From the sequence record PQ593108.1: a stretch of 40,430 nucleotides of DNA. One strand, given 5' to 3'. The position numbers and the translations under genes are program-made. Below are positions 1-40,430 of the stretch, piece after piece. The number at the start of each line of letters is the position of its first letter. Positions within the stretch are counted from its first letter, which is position 1. The notes below the pieces were generated by a model. It saw only the letters and a program-made list of their open reading frames with translations. It did no database searches and had not been told where the DNA came from. The DNA is from Escherichia phage MirsaeidiM_Esher7.

Positions 1-55
1 GGTCTTCAATGGGCGTATTCCCACTCCGTCTTATAGTCCTCTTCAGAGAACGAAC
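1..55. repeat. terminal direct repeat copy, identical to 40376-40430
   Basis: First 55 bp are identical to the last 55 bp of the window; T7-family genomes have direct terminal repeats. The true repeat may be longer than what is represented here. Confidence 0.8.
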
Positions 56-10100: not shown

Positions 10101-11043
10101 CAATCACACCAGCTGCTAACTGAGCACCAGTCCCAGCCTTGGCCTTCTCTTGGTCCAACTTCTGGTTCTCAAGCGCCAAGTTAATAAGCTCGGTCAGGTT
10201 CTGAGGAGAGCCACCAGTAATGACACCGTAATACTGAGGGAGAACTCCAGCGTTACGAATCTGGTCCAGCTCCTCACGAGACCACTTATGGTTGTTCCAG
10301 CGGGTAGGGTTGAACACATCGCCAATGACATCAAGTGAGTCCTCGGTCTGACCAGCGCGGATAGCCACGCCGACCATAGAGTTCTTCACTTCAGCTTCTG
10401 TAGCCGAGCCGAAACCGAACCACGTAGAGCGGCCCTCTCGTTCCTGCATGGTCTCGCCAGTAGACTTATAGAACATCTCACCGAACGATTCGTTGGGAGC
10501 TTCAGGTGCTTGACCCTCAATGTTTAGACCAGCAGCGGTCGGAAGGTTCTCACCCAGAGCTACTTTAGGTTTAGCCTTGAGTCCTTCCGTGAGTGCGTCA
10601 AATACGTTAGCGCTTACTGGTGGAGTCTTTGGGGTTATGCCTCCCGCACCACTTAAGGCACGAGAGACGCCAGTCTTGTAGACCTCAGGGTCATACCGGG
10701 AACCAGTCTCGTGGTAGCCGATAGCCTCAGACAGAGAGGCTAGGACATCAGGGTTCGTCAAGTCGATACTTTGGGTCGCTGGAATGCCAGTAGCAGCCAC
10801 AACCGAGTCTATGTAAGACTGAGTGTCGTTCTCGCTGGGGGGCGCCCATCGGTTGATAATCTTCTCGATTGAGTCATAGCCTTGGCGACCGTAGCTTTGA
10901 AGGTTTTTCGCTAAGGCTCGGACCCCAGATTCAGGACTGTCGAAGATGACGAATTCACCATCGTCGCCTATAGCACCTTCCCACTGGTCTTTGGACTTAC
11001 GGAGGTTACCGGGGTTTGCGTTCCTTACACCACGTGTTGCCAT
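7147..11043 (-). CDS. internal virion protein D (T7 gp16-like) with N-terminal lytic transglycosylase domain
   Basis: 1298 aa; size and position match T7 gp16; N-terminal region is consistent with the gp16 transglycosylase domain. Confidence 0.9.
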   Translation of the reverse strand: MATRGVRNANPGNLRKSKDQWEGAIGDDGEFVIFDSPESGVRALAKNLQSYGRQGYDSIEKIINRWAPPSENDTQSYIDSVVAATGIPATQSIDLTNPDVLASLSEAIGYHETGSRYDPEVYKTGVSRALSGAGGITPKTPPVSANVFDALTEGLKAKPKVALGENLPTAAGLNIEGQAPEAPNESFGEMFYKSTGETMQEREGRSTWFGFGSATEAEVKNSMVGVAIRAGQTEDSLDVIGDVFNPTRWNNHKWSREELDQIRNAGVLPQYYGVITGGSPQNLTELINLALENQKLDQEKAKAGTGAQLAAGVIGAGVDPLTYVPIAGQVGKGAKLVNKMFTVAAQSGALAGVSEMARTSVAGGDTHVAEAILGGALFGGGMTAIADGLGRALGRNTNEFAGPATRLEARETARNIDGQDLSRLPIQEGEQTFSHQGVKFADVPNEPGSVRLEDGSILIGENPLNPKTRKVFDEVIEPERAAAGVNLGGLTEIGLKLLRSENPEIRGVAADLVRSPTGMQSGASGKIGTTASDVFERLRAVDHRFYNDIDDAVTEALKDPYFQTAFWRDSGAFRQDIYQRVSMAIEDGSGNLKAELTPGELKVYDLLKSQFDAKREMMENPAMFGRPDAQSIFPGSRFKGTYVPHVYSNQMKELYIKELGSPEALQEAIKKSWLTSYASRPEVKKRVDEALLEADPTLTPEGLAAAVDKYANDKAYGISHTEQFERSSVMEENINGLVGLENNSFLEARNLFDSDMSIVLPNGQTFSVNNLREWDMDKIVPAYNRRINGDIAIMAGTGKTTKDMKDLVETMMNKAGDDGKLKGEVSTLRDTLKILTGRARRDGADDAAFATVMRTMTDLSFFAKNAYMGVQNLTEIGGMLARGNVRAMLHGVPIFRDLAFRNKKVGASEIKDLHNVIFGKELDDSIRPSKQDVIDRLRSYSDLGRGTATALGTAKYYTGELAVRSPFTKVLNGTTNYLLDAGRQGFLSDIVEHSLTGSKRKFDDRWLKTAGISDEQWKGIKSLIRESVTRGPDWKYTIKDKKAFSQDPRAMDLWRMGDTIADETLLRPHKLSNMDAKAYGPIAKTVLQFKNFVIKSINGRTMRTFYNATKNNRAIDAALSTVISMGLSGIYYMAQAHVKAYAMQDGRDREYLKQALDPTMIGYAALSRSSHLGGPLGVANILGGIAGYEDTKMLRSSILPRSPTEKPERAITFGAATSDPVMNVVGNFLEQVPAFGYAANVGVSAYNLAGYLKADTRVNERDYMTGMYNTFRELVPNDPITQKLLLGTFEEQGIHIKD

Positions 11044-14542: not shown

Positions 14543-16900
14543 TTAGACGGAACGAGCTTTCTTAGCGTATGACGCCTCCCAGCCACATCCAACGATTGAC
14601 ACTGGGGTAGGATAGTCGGACTCTAAGGTTAGACTCGTGGTTAATGCGTTACCATTCATAGCGAAGCGATACTGCCCGTCACCAATGTTAGTAGTCCCTA
14701 TGGTTTGCTGACCAAGGGTGTACCCATTAAAGGTGTTAACGAACTCTCGCTCACCGTTTCTGACAATGAGTCTCAGAGCGCCAGTGTCCTTGTAGTTGAC
14801 CCAAGCCCGACGAAGCTGTAGACGACCAGTGTCTTCAGACTGAGTGCCACTATTATCTTCAATCTTAATCAGGAACCGTGAGAACTTGTAGGACATCAGA
14901 TAGGGCCGTCCGATGAACACTGTACGTCCTGACCAATCGCCGTTGAGGGTAATCACAGTAGAGATACTGGTCAAGTCCCCAATGTCCACATAAGCACCCT
15001 GACTGTCAATCAGATAGTACCGACCGGGAGACGGAGCGTTACCACCATAAGCAGCACCAATGTCAACCGTAGTCTTATATGTGTCAGCATTAAACGAGCC
15101 AATTGGGATGACCATAGACACCTTGGAGTCAACGTGGAGTCTATACGGCTCTGACGGAAAGTCAGTTGCCTCCTTGATGAACTTAAGGTGCTCAATGTCT
15201 ACCCCTCCTTGGTGCTGACGAACGATGAACATGGTAGAGCCAATAGAAGCAGACGCAAGAATCTTATCATCTTTAGGGAACTCCCAGTGTGACCAAGAGG
15301 CTTGAAGCTGTACGCCGTCCTTAAACAAGAACTTGTAGATGTAGATACGGTTGTATGCACCTGTAGAGTTGACGCAGATGTAGTTCTCAGTCCCTGTACC
15401 TTGAATATCAAACACCCCGTTAGGGATGTAGGACAGTACGTGACCAGTTGTATCATCTGCATCCTTCACATCAGACACATCAGCTACAGCGAAGTATCGC
15501 TTAATGCTGGTGAAGGACCCACGAGGAGCTGAGAAGAAGACTGAGCGTCCTACAGCGAACGGTCTGGCATTGTCACCTAGGGCAAACTCTGAGCCTACAT
15601 CAAGCTGGATAGACTTCGAGGTAAGGACCCCAGAGCTTGTCATCACGAACTGAACCTCATCCGACCAAAGTAGCAGCTGCTCGCTAAACGGAACGGCATA
15701 CTTAAGGATTGAGATTCGAGGGTGACTTACAGCTACATCAATAGGGTCATCATCACTCAGTGTCGCCACACTCTTAGGGAAGAACGAAAAGTAGCTGGCT
15801 GAACGGCTCATGATTACGTTCTCACCCGACAAGAACCCAAGTCTGTTCCTGTAGAAGAACACATCATTAATCGCAGCATCCACGAAGCTAGGCATAGGGT
15901 TTGTGTCATCATTACCAGCACCACGCTTGGACCAATCCAGAGTCTTGAACTCAAAGGAGCCATCAGATTGTCGTACCAGAGCGTGTGGCATTGTGGTGTT
16001 ATCGAACCCAGTGACAACTCCCGGCTCCACTGTCTCCTTCCACGTCTTAGTGTTGGAGTCATACATCACGTAGTATTCATCGGCGCTACTGTTTGTTTCA
16101 CCCTGAATCTTAATGATATACCCATTAGGAGCAGCAAGAGGTAGTTTAGAGATTGTCTGCACAGTGTCTAGGACTGGGCTTATTAGCTGGTTAGCGTAGC
16201 CATCCTCCGTCTCCACTGAGTTAATATCGGTCCCTGAAGGAGCTGTGATTAGCAGGAATCCAGACCCAAGGTCAAACGTGAAGGTAGGATAGGAAGCAAC
16301 AAGAAGGTCTCTCAGAGCTGCACCAATGGCTTGAGCGTCAACCTTAGGTGGGTCCTTCTCGGCATCATTACCTGCTGGTAGCTTATGCGAGACCTTAACG
16401 CCACCGTTGATGCCCACCTTAAGGGTTCGACCATACTGCCCACCACGCAGGTTAATTAAAGCTCGTGCTTTGAGGTTATAACCAGAGTGTGACTTCTCGC
16501 TTCCACCTTTGACGACAACCTTACGGTTAACGACGAACGTATAGTCTGCCACGGTAACGACACGGATGTCATCTCGTGGGTTGGAGGACTTAACGTAGTC
16601 TACCGCACCTGACACTGAGTATTGATTACCACTCAAGTCAACTACCTGAATGTTGGACCCATTGAACACGATGTAATACTGCTCCTGCTCATCACGGTTA
16701 ATCAGGTGGAACTTAGGGTTGCTCCCAACGTCGATGTTAAGACGTCGCTTGAAGACTGTAGGTGGACGCTTCTGGAGGCCATCACTCTCTGATGACCAGC
16801 AGTTAACCTGTGCCTCGCCTTGGTCTGAGAACCTCAGGATGTCAGGCTGTTGGCTAATGCCACCCTTAAGATTTTTTATGCTTTGCGTAATAAGCGGCAT
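14543..16900 (-). CDS. tail tubular protein B (T7 gp12-like)
   Basis: 785 aa; size and position; TAATG overlap with gp11 stop. Confidence 0.9.
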   Translation of the reverse strand: MPLITQSIKNLKGGISQQPDILRFSDQGEAQVNCWSSESDGLQKRPPTVFKRRLNIDVGSNPKFHLINRDEQEQYYIVFNGSNIQVVDLSGNQYSVSGAVDYVKSSNPRDDIRVVTVADYTFVVNRKVVVKGGSEKSHSGYNLKARALINLRGGQYGRTLKVGINGGVKVSHKLPAGNDAEKDPPKVDAQAIGAALRDLLVASYPTFTFDLGSGFLLITAPSGTDINSVETEDGYANQLISPVLDTVQTISKLPLAAPNGYIIKIQGETNSSADEYYVMYDSNTKTWKETVEPGVVTGFDNTTMPHALVRQSDGSFEFKTLDWSKRGAGNDDTNPMPSFVDAAINDVFFYRNRLGFLSGENVIMSRSASYFSFFPKSVATLSDDDPIDVAVSHPRISILKYAVPFSEQLLLWSDEVQFVMTSSGVLTSKSIQLDVGSEFALGDNARPFAVGRSVFFSAPRGSFTSIKRYFAVADVSDVKDADDTTGHVLSYIPNGVFDIQGTGTENYICVNSTGAYNRIYIYKFLFKDGVQLQASWSHWEFPKDDKILASASIGSTMFIVRQHQGGVDIEHLKFIKEATDFPSEPYRLHVDSKVSMVIPIGSFNADTYKTTVDIGAAYGGNAPSPGRYYLIDSQGAYVDIGDLTSISTVITLNGDWSGRTVFIGRPYLMSYKFSRFLIKIEDNSGTQSEDTGRLQLRRAWVNYKDTGALRLIVRNGEREFVNTFNGYTLGQQTIGTTNIGDGQYRFAMNGNALTTSLTLESDYPTPVSIVGCGWEASYAKKARSV

Positions 16901-17624: not shown

Positions 17625-18799
17625 TTAGTTGTTGGACTCAGCCAGTTTAGCGGCCCTGTTCGCAGCACGAGTACGCGCAGCTTTCTGTTGAGGAGTTAGA
17701 GTCTCCTCTTCAGGTGCAGCCGCTACTGTAGCGACGTTAGGTTGGCTAAAGGTGCTTACGCCGCTGGGCTGAAAACCAGTGCGCCAGCCGCTTCAGGACG
17801 CAGACCACCGTGACCCATAGCGTATTTACCAACAATCAGGTCACCCTGAGCATCTACGTCACGGTCACGTTCCAGCGCCAAGTCACGCAGCTTCACAGTA
17901 CCCACAGCAGAACGGTGAGAGAACAGACCCACAACGTTGTCCAGAGCAACTTTAACATCACCAGCAGCAGTAGCTGGGAAGGCGTGCTTCTGACCAGTCG
18001 CAATAGTGATACCATCGGCACCACGAGTTTCACCAGCACCACCCTGAGTCAAGTGTGGAACTTCAACAACCACGAAGCCCATTACGTTACGGATGTTACC
18101 AGTCTCTGGGTCAATCAGCGCAGCATAGTTAGCAGCGTTCGGCATCAGAGCCGCGAGGATTGCAGAGTAGTTGTCAGGCGTTGTATAGAAATAACGGTCA
18201 CCAGCAGGAACGTAGTTGGAGGTCAGCTTCGCACGAGCAATGGTCAGTTGACCAATTATTGCTTCACCCAGTTTAGCCGGGGTGTTTAGGTCAGCTTTCT
18301 TACCAACTCCAAGTACGGACGCAGTGCCCAGACCAGCGATGTTCTCGTTGGATGCAGCCGGGAGGTTACACAGGATAGCCATTTCAGCCAGCACCGCACC
18401 ATCAGCAGCGATAGCCAGAGCTTCACCCAACTGGTTGGAGTACTCGCCAGCCACGTCGTAGTGGTTCATTGCGTCTTCAATGTCGAAAATCATCACATCG
18501 GCAGTCAGCAGACCATCAATGGTAATCACTTTCTCGGTATGCTTGATACCTTTACGCTTATCGGACAGTCGCTCACCAGGAGCCAGATACACACCAGAGG
18601 TGCGCCCCATGACCGGGAACTGAGCAGACTTACCGTTCTGAATGGTACGGACAATATGCTTGTCAGCAGTTACAGAGCGGCGAGTGAATGCGGTCAGGAC
18701 TTCACCAGCAAATACCTTCAGGAACAACGCCAGAGCGTCGGTACTGGATTTACCTTTACCTTGGTCTATACCAATTTTCTGACCCGGAACGTTTGCCAT
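17625..18799 (-). CDS. minor capsid protein 10B produced by -1 programmed ribosomal frameshift
   Basis: Slippery heptamer G GTT TTC (plus 17771-17777) seven codons before the 10A stop; the -1 frame stays open for 48 codons (QPSGVSTFSQPNVATVAAAPEEETLTPQQKAARTRAANRAAKLAESNN) and stops at 17625-17627, just before the terminator. Same heptamer as I recall for the T7 gene 10 frameshift. Confidence 0.6.
17756..18799 (-). CDS. major capsid protein 10A
   Basis: 347 aa (T7 10A is about 345 aa); downstream of the phi10-like promoter. Confidence 0.95.
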   Translation of the reverse strand: MANVPGQKIGIDQGKGKSSTDALALFLKVFAGEVLTAFTRRSVTADKHIVRTIQNGKSAQFPVMGRTSGVYLAPGERLSDKRKGIKHTEKVITIDGLLTADVMIFDIEDAMNHYDVAGEYSNQLGEALAIAADGAVLAEMAILCNLPAASNENIAGLGTASVLGVGKKADLNTPAKLGEAIIGQLTIARAKLTSNYVPAGDRYFYTTPDNYSAILAALMPNAANYAALIDPETGNIRNVMGFVVVEVPHLTQGGAGETRGADGITIATGQKHAFPATAAGDVKVALDNVVGLFSHRSAVGTVKLRDLALERDRDVDAQGDLIVGKYAMGHGGLRPEAAGALVFSPAA

Positions 18800-29049: not shown

Positions 29050-29073
29050 TGGGTTGTTCTCCCTTAGAGTTTA

Positions 29074-29532
29074 TTAACCACGGTCGGAAGTGACCAGTTC
29101 ATTGGTAGACAGCCAGCGTTGCAAGTCAAAACTTGGACACGCCTTAGGTGCTATGTCATGGTGTGCTTTGATTTCTGCCTGAGGATACAGGACCTTCAGT
29201 TCATCAAGCTTGTTGCGCAGGGAGTTCATCTGGGCTGGAGTGAAGTTAGCTTCAAACTGACCCTTAGCGTCAATTCCACCTACAAGGCAGACGCCTACGG
29301 ACTTGGAGTTCCAGCCCTTAACGTGTGACCCTACGACGTTTACCGGTCGTCCCTCTTCCACAGTACCATCGCGCTTGATGATAAAGTGGTAGCCTACGTC
29401 CAGCCAGCCTTGCTGCTTGTGCCACATACGGATGGTCTCTACCCCGATGTCCATCTCTGGCTTGGTAGCCGAACAGTGAACGAAGATAGCGTCAGTCCTG
29501 GACCGTGGGTTGAACTGTACCTTACTTACCAT
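29074..29532 (-). CDS. N-acetylmuramoyl-L-alanine amidase / T7 lysozyme (gp3.5-like)
   Basis: 152 aa; near-collinear with recalled T7 lysozyme (TDAIFVHCSATKP, WLDVGYHFIIKRDGTVE, GVCLVGGID, APKACPSFDL, NELVTSDRG). Confidence 0.95.
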   Translation of the reverse strand: MVSKVQFNPRSRTDAIFVHCSATKPEMDIGVETIRMWHKQQGWLDVGYHFIIKRDGTVEEGRPVNVVGSHVKGWNSKSVGVCLVGGIDAKGQFEANFTPAQMNSLRNKLDELKVLYPQAEIKAHHDIAPKACPSFDLQRWLSTNELVTSDRG

Positions 29533-31434: not shown

Positions 31435-31662
31435 TTAAGCATATCGGTTCACCATTACACAGTCGTCAGAATGGTCATACTCCTCTACCCTAATAATCAT
31501 ACTAGGAGTCTTCATATAAGCAAACGGTAGGAGGTCATAGTCACAATACTCACTGTGTCCTAATGAGAACGCTAACATACCCTTACGTAGCGCCTTGTAT
31601 GCTCGGTAAAAACTGAGCGCTCTACGCTTCACCCCTACAGCTTTAAGTTCTTCACGCGTCAT
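31435..31662 (-). CDS. hypothetical protein (1.8 slot)
   Basis: 75 aa, ATG with AAAGG RBS, overlaps the gp1.7 stop by 11 nt. Confidence 0.5.
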   Translation of the reverse strand: MTREELKAVGVKRRALSFYRAYKALRKGMLAFSLGHSEYCDYDLLPFAYMKTPSMIIRVEEYDHSDDCVMVNRYA

Positions 31663-32191
31663 AACACTTACCTTTATGTAGGTCGAACAGCTCCTGATAG
31701 AAGGCTGCTTTGTTCAGGTCCTTCTCCATAGTCGCCAGCTCTGACTTCTTACCAGCCCGGAGTCGATACTTCAGGACGTTACCCATGCAGAAACCACGGA
31801 ACTCGCTGACAGTCAGGGACCGAGCGATAATCTCAATGGACTCCACACCGTCAAAGACCTGATAGTGGGACGGCTTGCGTACGTCGTCGATAGCCTTAGC
31901 GTAAGGCTGGTCGTCTGTAGTAGTTACCTCTGGTTTCTCCAGTTTAGGCTTACGTATGTCCATCGCTCGGATTTCACCTAAGGTTATCTTTTTATTGATA
32001 TTTACAGGGCAGAGGTAGCAAGGGACATTATGGCAGAAAATACCGCAGCCATTCAAATCATCTGGGCGACCTTCGTTATTATCTACCAACTTAATGATAA
32101 TCTCTTGTTCAAGTGCGTTCATACTGTTAGCTCCTTTATTACAGGTGTGTGGATAACGGTCATCCTTCTCTAAGCAAGCTATACACCCCAT
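31652..32191 (-). CDS. gp1.7-like nucleotide kinase
   Basis: 179 aa; strong match to recalled T7 gp1.7 (GCIACLEKDDRYPHTCNKGAN, IIKL.DNNEGRPDDLNGCGI, GNVLKYRLRAGKKSELA). Confidence 0.85.
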   Translation of the reverse strand: MGCIACLEKDDRYPHTCNKGANSMNALEQEIIIKLVDNNEGRPDDLNGCGIFCHNVPCYLCPVNINKKITLGEIRAMDIRKPKLEKPEVTTTDDQPYAKAIDDVRKPSHYQVFDGVESIEIIARSLTVSEFRGFCMGNVLKYRLRAGKKSELATMEKDLNKAAFYQELFDLHKGKCYDA

Positions 32192-32555: not shown

Positions 32556-33596
32556 TTAGCTCTTAATGGTAGGGTTATCTTCCGTCCCGCGCCACTGGTC
32601 AAACGAGGGGTGTCGCAATGAGCCATCTGGTGTCTCCTCCATGTAGGTAATCTGGCAAGCCCACCCCTTGTAGTAGTCAGGGTCTGACTTAACGTTCTCC
32701 GTGAACTCGGACATAAGGGCGCGACTAATGTTAGTTGCGGAGACCTCCATCCCGTTCTCGAGCATAACGTCGAAGCCGATGACCAGACCTTCGTTGGCTA
32801 GACCTTCAGTTCCCCATACCGGACGAACAACATGGCCGTCTGCCTCTTCGCTTGGTTTCATCTTGAACATACCTGACTTCTTGCCACGCTTCCAGCGTCC
32901 CAGTGGGTCTTTAACCACCAGACCCTCATGGCCCTCTTCTCTCTTCTTCTCATACAAGTCAGTAAGCTCGTCTAAGCTAAACACTGTATGACTCTCAGAT
33001 AGCACCCAGTCGATTTCCGGGAAGTATTTCTGGAGGAGAGGGACGATAGCTTCGGCCTTCAGGCGTGTGACGCTATGGATAGGACCTTCAGCTTTCGGGT
33101 CGAGGATGACGTTAAGGTCCACGATACCGTAGACGACTACCTTGATGTGCTTCTTGTCAAGACAGAACGGTAGATTCTCTTTCTTCCAGTTCTTACCCCA
33201 GTGCTCACCAGTTGAAAACTCAAAGTTCTTTTGCTTTACCCACTTCGTTCGGATAAGACCTGAAGATGTGTTGAAGTCTACACCTTTTACCATCACCTCA
33301 CCATCAATCATCAGGCCTGTCCCTTCGTAGCCGGATTGCTTCAGGAACCATCGCCAGTCGCTTGCCTTGGTCGCCCCAATGTCCTCACCGGATGTGTTCA
33401 TCCAGCTAAGGGAAGGAAGTGGTTTAGACTCACGGCTCAACCATTGGGTCTCGCCTGATGGGAAGACTGGAAGGTTCAACCGGACACCATCGTACTTCAC
33501 TTCAGCTTCCAGAGACCCGGCTGCTTCCAGTGCCTTCTTAATGCCATACTCAGAGTAATCTACAGCGCGGTGCGGGTTGGTTTTAATAGTTGTCAT
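32556..33596 (-). CDS. ATP-dependent DNA ligase (T7 gp1.3-like)
   Basis: Adenylation motif KYDGVR; start placed at the ATG at 33596 (MTTIKTNP..., GGAG RBS, TAATG overlap with the gene 1.2 stop) rather than the upstream ATG at 33611. Confidence 0.9.
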   Translation of the reverse strand: MTTIKTNPHRAVDYSEYGIKKALEAAGSLEAEVKYDGVRLNLPVFPSGETQWLSRESKPLPSLSWMNTSGEDIGATKASDWRWFLKQSGYEGTGLMIDGEVMVKGVDFNTSSGLIRTKWVKQKNFEFSTGEHWGKNWKKENLPFCLDKKHIKVVVYGIVDLNVILDPKAEGPIHSVTRLKAEAIVPLLQKYFPEIDWVLSESHTVFSLDELTDLYEKKREEGHEGLVVKDPLGRWKRGKKSGMFKMKPSEEADGHVVRPVWGTEGLANEGLVIGFDVMLENGMEVSATNISRALMSEFTENVKSDPDYYKGWACQITYMEETPDGSLRHPSFDQWRGTEDNPTIKS

Positions 33597-33859
33597 TATG
33601 CTTTGCTCCATGTGTCGAGATGGTCAGCGAGACCGTTGAGGTAGTCTGTTGCAGTATTATACAGCACGTCTTCATCGTAGTGTGCGAAGGTCTCAAGCGC
33701 GAAGATGTTACCAGCTCGGTCCTAAACCCTGAGTTTCATGCACTCTTGGCGTGACGTATAGTCTTGAAACTCTTGAGATATGACAGCGAAGTCTAACTGG
33801 TAGAGCCTGTTACACGCTGCCCTGAAAGCGTTGAGGTTGCCACTATAGAGTTGGCCCAT
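33596..33859 (-). pseudogene. gene 1.2 homolog (dGTPase inhibitor) interrupted by an in-frame amber codon
   Basis: The reading frame MGQLYSGNLNAFRAACNRLYQLDFAVISQEFQDYTSRQECMKLRV-TAG-DRAGNIFALETFAHYDEDVLYNTATDYLNGLADHLDTWSKA aligns with recalled T7 gp1.2 across its length, but codon 46 is TAG (plus 33722-33724). Confidence 0.6.
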
Positions 33860-33863
33860 TTGG

Positions 33864-34043
33864 TTATGCTCCTACGAAGTATTTCTCTTGGTTGATCATA
33901 GAGTCTTTACCTTCAGCATTACGGAAAGCGCCTTTGACACCACCGCCACGTTTAGTCTTGTTCAGCTTGCGGCCCTTAGGAATGTAACCTTCAGTCTGCT
34001 GACGTTCACGGATGCGCTCGAAGTTGATAGTGTTCTGATACAT
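33864..34043 (-). CDS. gp1.1-like small basic protein (59 aa)
   Basis: ATG with GGAG RBS; contains KGRKLNKTKR, shared with recalled T7 gp1.1. Below the ORF-track size cut-off. Confidence 0.7.
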   Translation of the reverse strand: MYQNTINFERIRERQQTEGYIPKGRKLNKTKRGGGVKGAFRNAEGKDSMINQEKYFVGA

Positions 34044-34073: not shown

Positions 34074-34121
34074 GTTAATCATGAAGGCCACGACTTTGAG
34101 TCATGACCTTTAGTCTAATCC
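34074..34121 (-). promoter_or_regulatory. conserved imperfect hairpin, candidate RNase III site (R1.1 position)
   Basis: Third copy of the hairpin element, between the phi1.1-like promoter and gene 1.1. Confidence 0.4.
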
Positions 34122-34138
34122 TATAGTGATAGTTTAGG
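34116..34138 (-). promoter_or_regulatory. phage RNAP promoter (phi1.1-like)
   Basis: Plus-strand motif tcctatagtgatagtttaggtt. Confidence 0.75.
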
Positions 34139-40375: not shown

Positions 40376-40430
40376 GGTCTTCAATGGGCGTATTCCCACT
40401 CCGTCTTATAGTCCTCTTCAGAGAACGAAC
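40376..40430. repeat. terminal direct repeat copy, identical to 1-55
   Basis: Exact 55-bp match to window start. Confidence 0.8.

Follow-up and report, generated by a model that had tools for sequence, protein, structure and literature searches.

The gene 1.2 homolog of Escherichia phage MirsaeidiM_Esher7 was found to be interrupted by an in-frame amber codon, and the locus, judged from its sequence, is a disrupted allele of a PF10922 family gene rather than a functional member of that family. The explanation that we favour, with a probability of about 0.6, is that a dispensable accessory gene recently acquired a spontaneous null mutation, which is neutral and tolerated by the phage. The window that was analysed, meaning the whole stretch of 40,430 nucleotides, is a K1F-like (Kayfunavirus), T7-like genome in reverse orientation, with its genes on the minus strand. 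The relevant genes follow one another in the order RNA polymerase, a 71-aa ORF, the gp1.1 homolog, gene 1.2 and ligase (Table 1), and gene 1.2 has the same position, after the RNA polymerase gene and between the gp1.1 homolog and the ligase, in Pipis, Esher2 and K1F. The exact gp1.1 protein of the window was also present on contigs marked with Pfam PF08200 (Phage_T7_1_1).

Table 1. Features of the gene 1.2 region and neighbouring genes in the window.
Feature	Coordinates	Strand	Basis or remark
RNA polymerase, 893 aa	37124..34443	minus	
Phage RNA polymerase promoter-like core CTATCACTATAGG	34120..34132	minus	Upstream of genes 1.1-1.2-1.3
Gene 1.1 homolog, 59 aa (K1F annotation: gp1.15)	33864..34043	minus	ORF list
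Gene 1.2 homolog (dGTPase inhibitor family, PF10922), 87 sense-codon positions plus TAA, amber at codon 46	33596..33859	minus	
Codons still translated (45): N-terminal tail, helix 1, strand 1 and most of strand 2 (predicted)	33725..33859	minus	ORF and AlphaFold2 model
Two neighbouring bases changed, coding strand GG to TT (plus strand CC to AA), GTG GAG to GTT TAG	33724..33725	minus	
Amber TAG at codon 46, in place of a near-invariant Glu	33722..33724	minus	GAG in 11 aligned relatives
Codons after the amber (41), in frame, untranslated: strand 3 and helix 2	33599..33721	minus	DNA 100% identical to Pipis
ATP-dependent DNA ligase, gene 1.3, 346 aa	32556..33596	minus	99.7% identical to Pipis ligase, no stop

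Translation of positions 33865..33590 on the minus strand read MGQLYSGNLNAFRAACNRLYQLDFAVISQEFQDYTSRQECMKLRV, a stop, DRAGNIFALETFAHYDEDVLYNTATDYLNGLADHLDTWSKA and then two consecutive stops, with the ATG of gene 1.2 at 33859..33857, the TAG of codon 46 at 33724..33722 and the TAA at 33598..33596, all on that strand. The earlier note had identified the gene as a homolog of the gp1.2 dGTPase inhibitor, had placed the TAG at codon 46 and had held that homology to T7 gp1.2 extends to both sides of it with no frameshift. The translation reproduced the codon number and the coordinates exactly, and the profile searches upheld the remainder. A read-through query of 87 residues, with an X put at the stop, scored 102.6 bits against the Pfam family PF10922 (T7-like_gp12; cutoff 22 bits), residues 1-84 lying on profile positions 1-84. 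When the two parts were searched separately, the N-terminal 45 aa matched profile positions 1-45 (53.4 bits, E 3e-14) and the C-terminal 41 aa matched positions 47-84 (38.2 bits, E 2e-9). As each half matches the family in register, the stop corresponds to profile position 46 in a single frame, with no indel. A phmmer search of PDB sequences aligned the protein to T7 gp1.2 (2MDP, 7U65) over residues 1-84, with the amber opposite Glu46 in the T7 segment RLRIEDRSGN, and among the PHROGs the read-through protein belonged to phrog_2949 ('dGTPase inhibitor; target for F exclusion', E 1.7e-35). Because the frame is homologous throughout and the codon is GAG in 11 aligned relatives, these comparisons confirmed that the in-frame stop is not that of a chance frame.

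The established counterpart is T7 gp1.2, an inhibitor of the E. coli dGTPase (Dgt) (PF10922, PHROG 2949; PDB 2MDP, 7U65-7U67), with which there is 54% identity and a full-length, in-register profile match. As in T7, the gene has gene 1.1 on one side and the ligase gene 1.3 on the other, and its N-terminus keeps the motif LYSGNL, the part of T7 gp1.2 that enters the Dgt active site. Unlike that of T7, however, the frame is cut at codon 46, and only with suppression could strand 3 and helix 2 be produced. Thus, whereas members of the family have an uninterrupted ORF of about 83-88 codons encoding a complete alpha-beta-beta-beta-alpha fold, the ORF of the window is broken by the TAG.

An alignment with other K1F-like genomes, which the earlier note had proposed as a check, showed that the TAG is common to none of them. 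Codon 46 is GAG in Pipis, MirsaeidiM_Esher2 and both K1F records, as it is in seven more relatives, taken from IMG/VR and from Logan assemblies located via an identical gp1.1; the preceding Val45 codon in relatives is GTG, GTA or GTC, never GTT. For nucleotide searches a 33-nt query centred on the site was used, which megablast finds only if the match spans the two central bases. The exact 33-mer with GTTTAG was present in 0 of 50,697 phage records, compared to 19 records for the control with GTGGAG, and the 33-mer representing a GTT GAG intermediate (GTTGAG) was likewise found in 0 phage records. A degenerate pattern for TAG at codon 46 gave 0 matches in IMG/VR, a weak test in that only 2 contigs were matched by the corresponding GAR control, and a TRR pattern at this codon gave 0 matches in a metagenome collection. 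At the protein level, an exact look-up found no identical protein on record for the 45-aa truncated product, and there was no truncated family member among 70 cluster representatives obtained by a search of 5.8 billion proteins, all of which were 83-88 aa in length; position 46 was Glu in 69 of these and Lys in the other. By tblastn, gene 1.2 was detected in 432 phage records, in each as one piece that spanned 80% or more of the query. Two records in which gene 1.2 is unannotated were inspected as candidate further disruptions and rejected: phage pO91 (OR204650) has an intact ORF at 401-664 and K1F record DQ111067, in which the gene carries no CDS annotation, has an intact ORF at 1744-2007, both cases being annotation gaps.

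On every contig with the exact gp1.1 homolog, gene 1.2 was intact or an inhibitor of another family was present. On the Logan contigs SRR33209174_18 (L010:2442-2693) and SRR33223178_4 (L011:555-806) the gene 1.2 slot was occupied by a different 83-aa protein, which was assigned to phrog_6515 ('dGTPase inhibitor') and had neither a Pfam match nor any similarity to gp1.2 by BLASTP. Two unrelated-looking families of predicted dGTPase inhibitor are thus seen to alternate at the gene 1.2 position.

The nearest match in the phage collection over the gene 1.2 region was Pipis (PV714130.1, host UTI89), at 96.7%. Within gene 1.2 itself 262 of 264 nucleotides were identical, the sole differences being the adjacent positions 33725 and 33724, where the window has GTT TAG whereas Pipis has GTG GAG and an intact 87-aa protein. 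The flanking gene 1.1 and ligase proteins were 98-99.7% identical to those of Pipis, and the block of about 1.4 kb from 33947 to 32551 contained four differences in all. In a six-genome comparison, both bases were private to the window with respect to the five relatives. The 41 codons past the stop match Pipis at every nucleotide and so show no decay, which makes a recent origin of the stop likely. A single tandem double-base substitution is the simplest account of GTT TAG, although the change may also have come in two steps, the later one a G to T in a GTT GAG ancestor that was not sampled. A second private adjacent pair was seen in the amidase (gene 3.5 homolog), where codon 77 (approximately 29303-29304, minus strand) has changed from CG to AA, giving Lys; this shows that such changes occur elsewhere in the window's lineage.

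Several other properties of the genome were recorded. No record in the phage collection was identical genome-wide, every deposited record differing by at least about 3-5%, and exact-protein look-ups gave no identical record for the ligase (346 aa or 351 aa), the RNA polymerase or the gp1.7 homolog. The latter (179 aa, 31652-32191, minus strand) matched Pipis gp1.7 only over Pipis residues 69-144; its N-terminal part differs from that of Pipis, so this is a mosaic replacement, with the ORF intact. The Pipis HNH homing-endonuclease genes (CDS 14882-15097, 18288-18698 and 29055-29504) had no counterpart at the equivalent window positions, one of the three giving only a weak 32% match at window 866-690, and small hypothetical Pipis genes, among them 10451-10630, 15590-16039 and 40482-40613, had no match in the window. 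The first 55 bases of the window (1-55) were repeated exactly at 40376-40430. This repeat would be the overlap left by a short-read de Bruijn assembler (k=55-like) in a circularly permuted contig and not a true terminal repeat; counted once, it would leave a non-redundant length of 40,375 bp.

The position of the amber codon shows that, in a host without a suppressor, translation would end after residue 45. AlphaFold2 run on the family alignment (mean pLDDT 79) gave helices at residues 6-21 and 63-86 and strands at 24-33, 38-47 and 52-60, in agreement with the NMR fold of gp1.2, in which a three-stranded sheet is covered by two helices (PMC9478638). The model places the amber at the end of strand 2, such that strand 3 and helix 2, making up 47% of the chain, are removed. 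Since both of these elements of the alpha-beta-beta-beta-alpha fold would be lost, the native fold is not expected to form, and the 45-residue product would most likely be an unfolded, non-functional fragment, with complete loss of function. In the case of T7 gp1.2, the N-terminus enters the Dgt active site and helix 1 lies at the subunit interface, contacts with Dgt being reported for Y5, S6, G7, A10, F12, K13, Y28 and V65 (PMC9478638). The 45 retained residues span seven of these eight positions, V65 being outside, and the gp1.2 of the window keeps Y5, S6, G7 and F12, positions at least 90% conserved in the family. Residual binding of Dgt by the fragment is nevertheless considered unlikely.

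The consequences for expression downstream would probably be slight. The 13-mer CTATCACTATAGG gave 13 matches at up to two mismatches in the window, compared to 0.97 expected by chance, and 12 of these were on the minus strand: nine exact (433, 7145, 14512, 18918, 19906, 22745, 32486, 34132 and 37210), one with a single mismatch (31187) and two with two mismatches (5924 and 28832). It is predicted to be the core that the phage RNA polymerase promoters of this genome have in common. The same scan, at up to two mismatches, found no promoter-like match inside gene 1.2, and the idea that the TT change had made a promoter or other signal was rejected, the altered site being by eye unlike the promoter core. 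The ligase ATG shares one base with the gene 1.2 TAA (TAATG), and a GGAG is found 9 nt upstream of this start. Dependence of ligase translation on that of gene 1.2 via RNA structure was also considered and rejected, as the region from the amber codon to the ligase start showed no unusual RNA structure relative to shuffled controls (z = +0.85). With its own Shine-Dalgarno sequence and no unusual RNA structure, the ligase should experience little polarity, and any loss of translational coupling is expected to be modest only.

How the stop arose, and whether it matters to the phage, was considered with these results in mind. According to the explanation that we favour, an adjacent GG to TT change would have turned Val45-Glu46 (GTG GAG) into Val45-amber (GTT TAG), and the loss of gene 1.2 would be neutral or nearly so on ordinary hosts, the phage staying viable. 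The optA1 hosts over-produce dGTPase, and gene 1.2 mutants are said, from the work of Saito and Richardson in 1981 and of Huber, Beauchamp and Richardson in 1988, to grow normally except on these hosts. Since gp1.2 would be needed only where dGTPase is overproduced, its loss should be (nearly) neutral elsewhere. A Klebsiella phage also lost its dGTPase-inhibitor gene by deletion when evolved experimentally (bioRxiv 10.1101/2024.10.29.620800). One point against a neutral null is that the dGTPase inhibitor is intact in every sampled relative, some having phrog_6515 in the slot. The retention of an inhibitor by every sampled relative suggests that its function is normally selected, so that a null is not obviously neutral in nature; normal maintenance of the function also again fits a recent event. 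Inactivation as a tolerated loss had been one of the possibilities offered by the earlier note, and it is the one preferred here, given that the rest of the genome is intact and natural-looking, that the allele was seen in no other genome examined and that there is no decay downstream of the stop. The two other possibilities of the note, an amber-suppressing host and a sequencing error, are still realistic but rank lower.

The first alternative is that the real phage has GTG GAG and that the two T's come from base-calling or assembly. Two adjacent changes in an otherwise identical gene are indeed a pattern that local miscalls can make, and the TT allele was found nowhere else, be it in the aligned relatives, by the 33-mer or in the pattern scans. 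However, when the 52 Pipis CDS translations were compared to the window by tblastn, all of those with a homolog were stop-free except gene 1.2. Private substitutions were collected from 13 genes that aligned gap-free in six genomes (11,484 nt), and the window had 106, of which 69% were synonymous, somewhat below the 78-86% of the relatives, and 60% were transitions; its private G to T and C to A counts were similar to those of the relatives, and the spectrum as a whole resembled that of the five relatives. Private substitutions that are mostly synonymous and of normal spectrum point to natural divergence and not to a noisy consensus. Adjacent private double changes, moreover, are present in the five relatives too, at 1-12 per genome, and consensus substitution errors are rare in short-read assemblies, of which this appears to be one from its 55-base overlap. 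The quality evidence lowers the odds that the two T's are an artefact, without proving them real, and we regard such an error as unlikely.

A second possibility, to which we would give slightly less credence, is that the null allele was fixed by positive selection because loss of gp1.2 escapes abortive-infection sensors such as PifA of the F plasmid or ApeA. gp1.2 determines the sensitivity of T7 to PifA (BASEL paper, 10.1101/2021.03.08.434280), and its co-expression with ApeA reduces cell growth, gp1.2 behaving as a trigger of ApeA (PMC11482910). The allele of the window is 54% identical to the T7 type compared to 35% to the T3 type, and the mutation is recent and the sole disruptive change found in the genome. 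On the other hand, disruption of gene 1.2 was not recurrent among the 432 phage records or the 70 protein clusters, and one nonsense change in a dispensable gene is explicable without selection. Since gp1.2 is a liability in some hosts, namely those with PifA or ApeA, a null may be neutral or advantageous depending on the host.

It is improbable that the amber is suppressed, that is, that the phage was propagated on a host with a suppressor tRNA, such as a hybrid of K-12 and K1 with supE/glnV44, in which a full-length protein with E46Q or a similar change is made. The K-12/K1 hybrid EV36 often serves as the host for growing K1-specific phages, and glnV44 is carried by many K-12 lineages, although the supE genotype of EV36 is not stated in the literature found on this strain. 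As gene 1.2 is non-essential, suppression is not required for viability, and the nearest relative, Pipis, was isolated on the clinical strain UTI89. ARAGORN found no tRNA or tmRNA gene in the window. In addition, Glu46 is near-invariant (69/70), and Gln at this position may therefore not restore function.

The idea that the truncated product has retained an activity was given still less weight. The 45-residue fragment would in that case be a separation-of-function, minimal dGTPase inhibitor selected as a defence-escape variant. Through its tail and helix 1, with seven of the eight reported Dgt contacts, it might go on binding dGTPase, or inhibit it in part, after loss of the region of gp1.2 to which abortive-infection systems of the PifA or ApeA type respond. 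We consider this very improbable.

Deliberate engineering of an amber mutant seems more remote again. A two-base change giving a stop could stem from oligonucleotide design, but GAG to TAG takes one change and the extra silent G to T has no visible purpose; by eye no common restriction site is created and no other engineered features were noticed, and the genome is at least about 3-5% from every deposited record, as in a wild isolate. Programmed read-through or reassignment of TAG, for which the presence of the in-frame TAG speaks and nothing further, is effectively refuted: recoding is excluded by the lack of a tRNA gene together with the use of TAG to end other genes (4 of the 40 checked in the window), only one in-frame TAG occurs across all aligned genes, and Glu is found here in all relatives aligned (in the family, 69/70 representatives).

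The neutral null allele that we favour would have precedents. Classical T7 gene 1.2 amber and deletion mutants were reportedly described by Saito and Richardson in 1981, and like them the allele of the window is a loss-of-function allele of this dispensable gene that leaves the phage viable on ordinary hosts; unlike those mutants and the evolved phages, it is present in an apparent wild-type K1F-like isolate with no known history of selection or mutagenesis. As loss-of-function alleles of gene 1.2 are already known from the classical work, the general biological importance of the finding is small. For annotation, the appropriate label is disrupted gene or pseudogene, and neither a full-length inhibitor nor a pair of small ORFs. 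Used in therapy or diagnostics, this K1-specific phage may plate poorly on hosts that have high dGTPase activity or a dGTPase-based defence. Finally, pairing with Pipis provides a near-isogenic contrast for the contribution of gp1.2 in K1 strains, including its part in PifA- or ApeA-type sensing.
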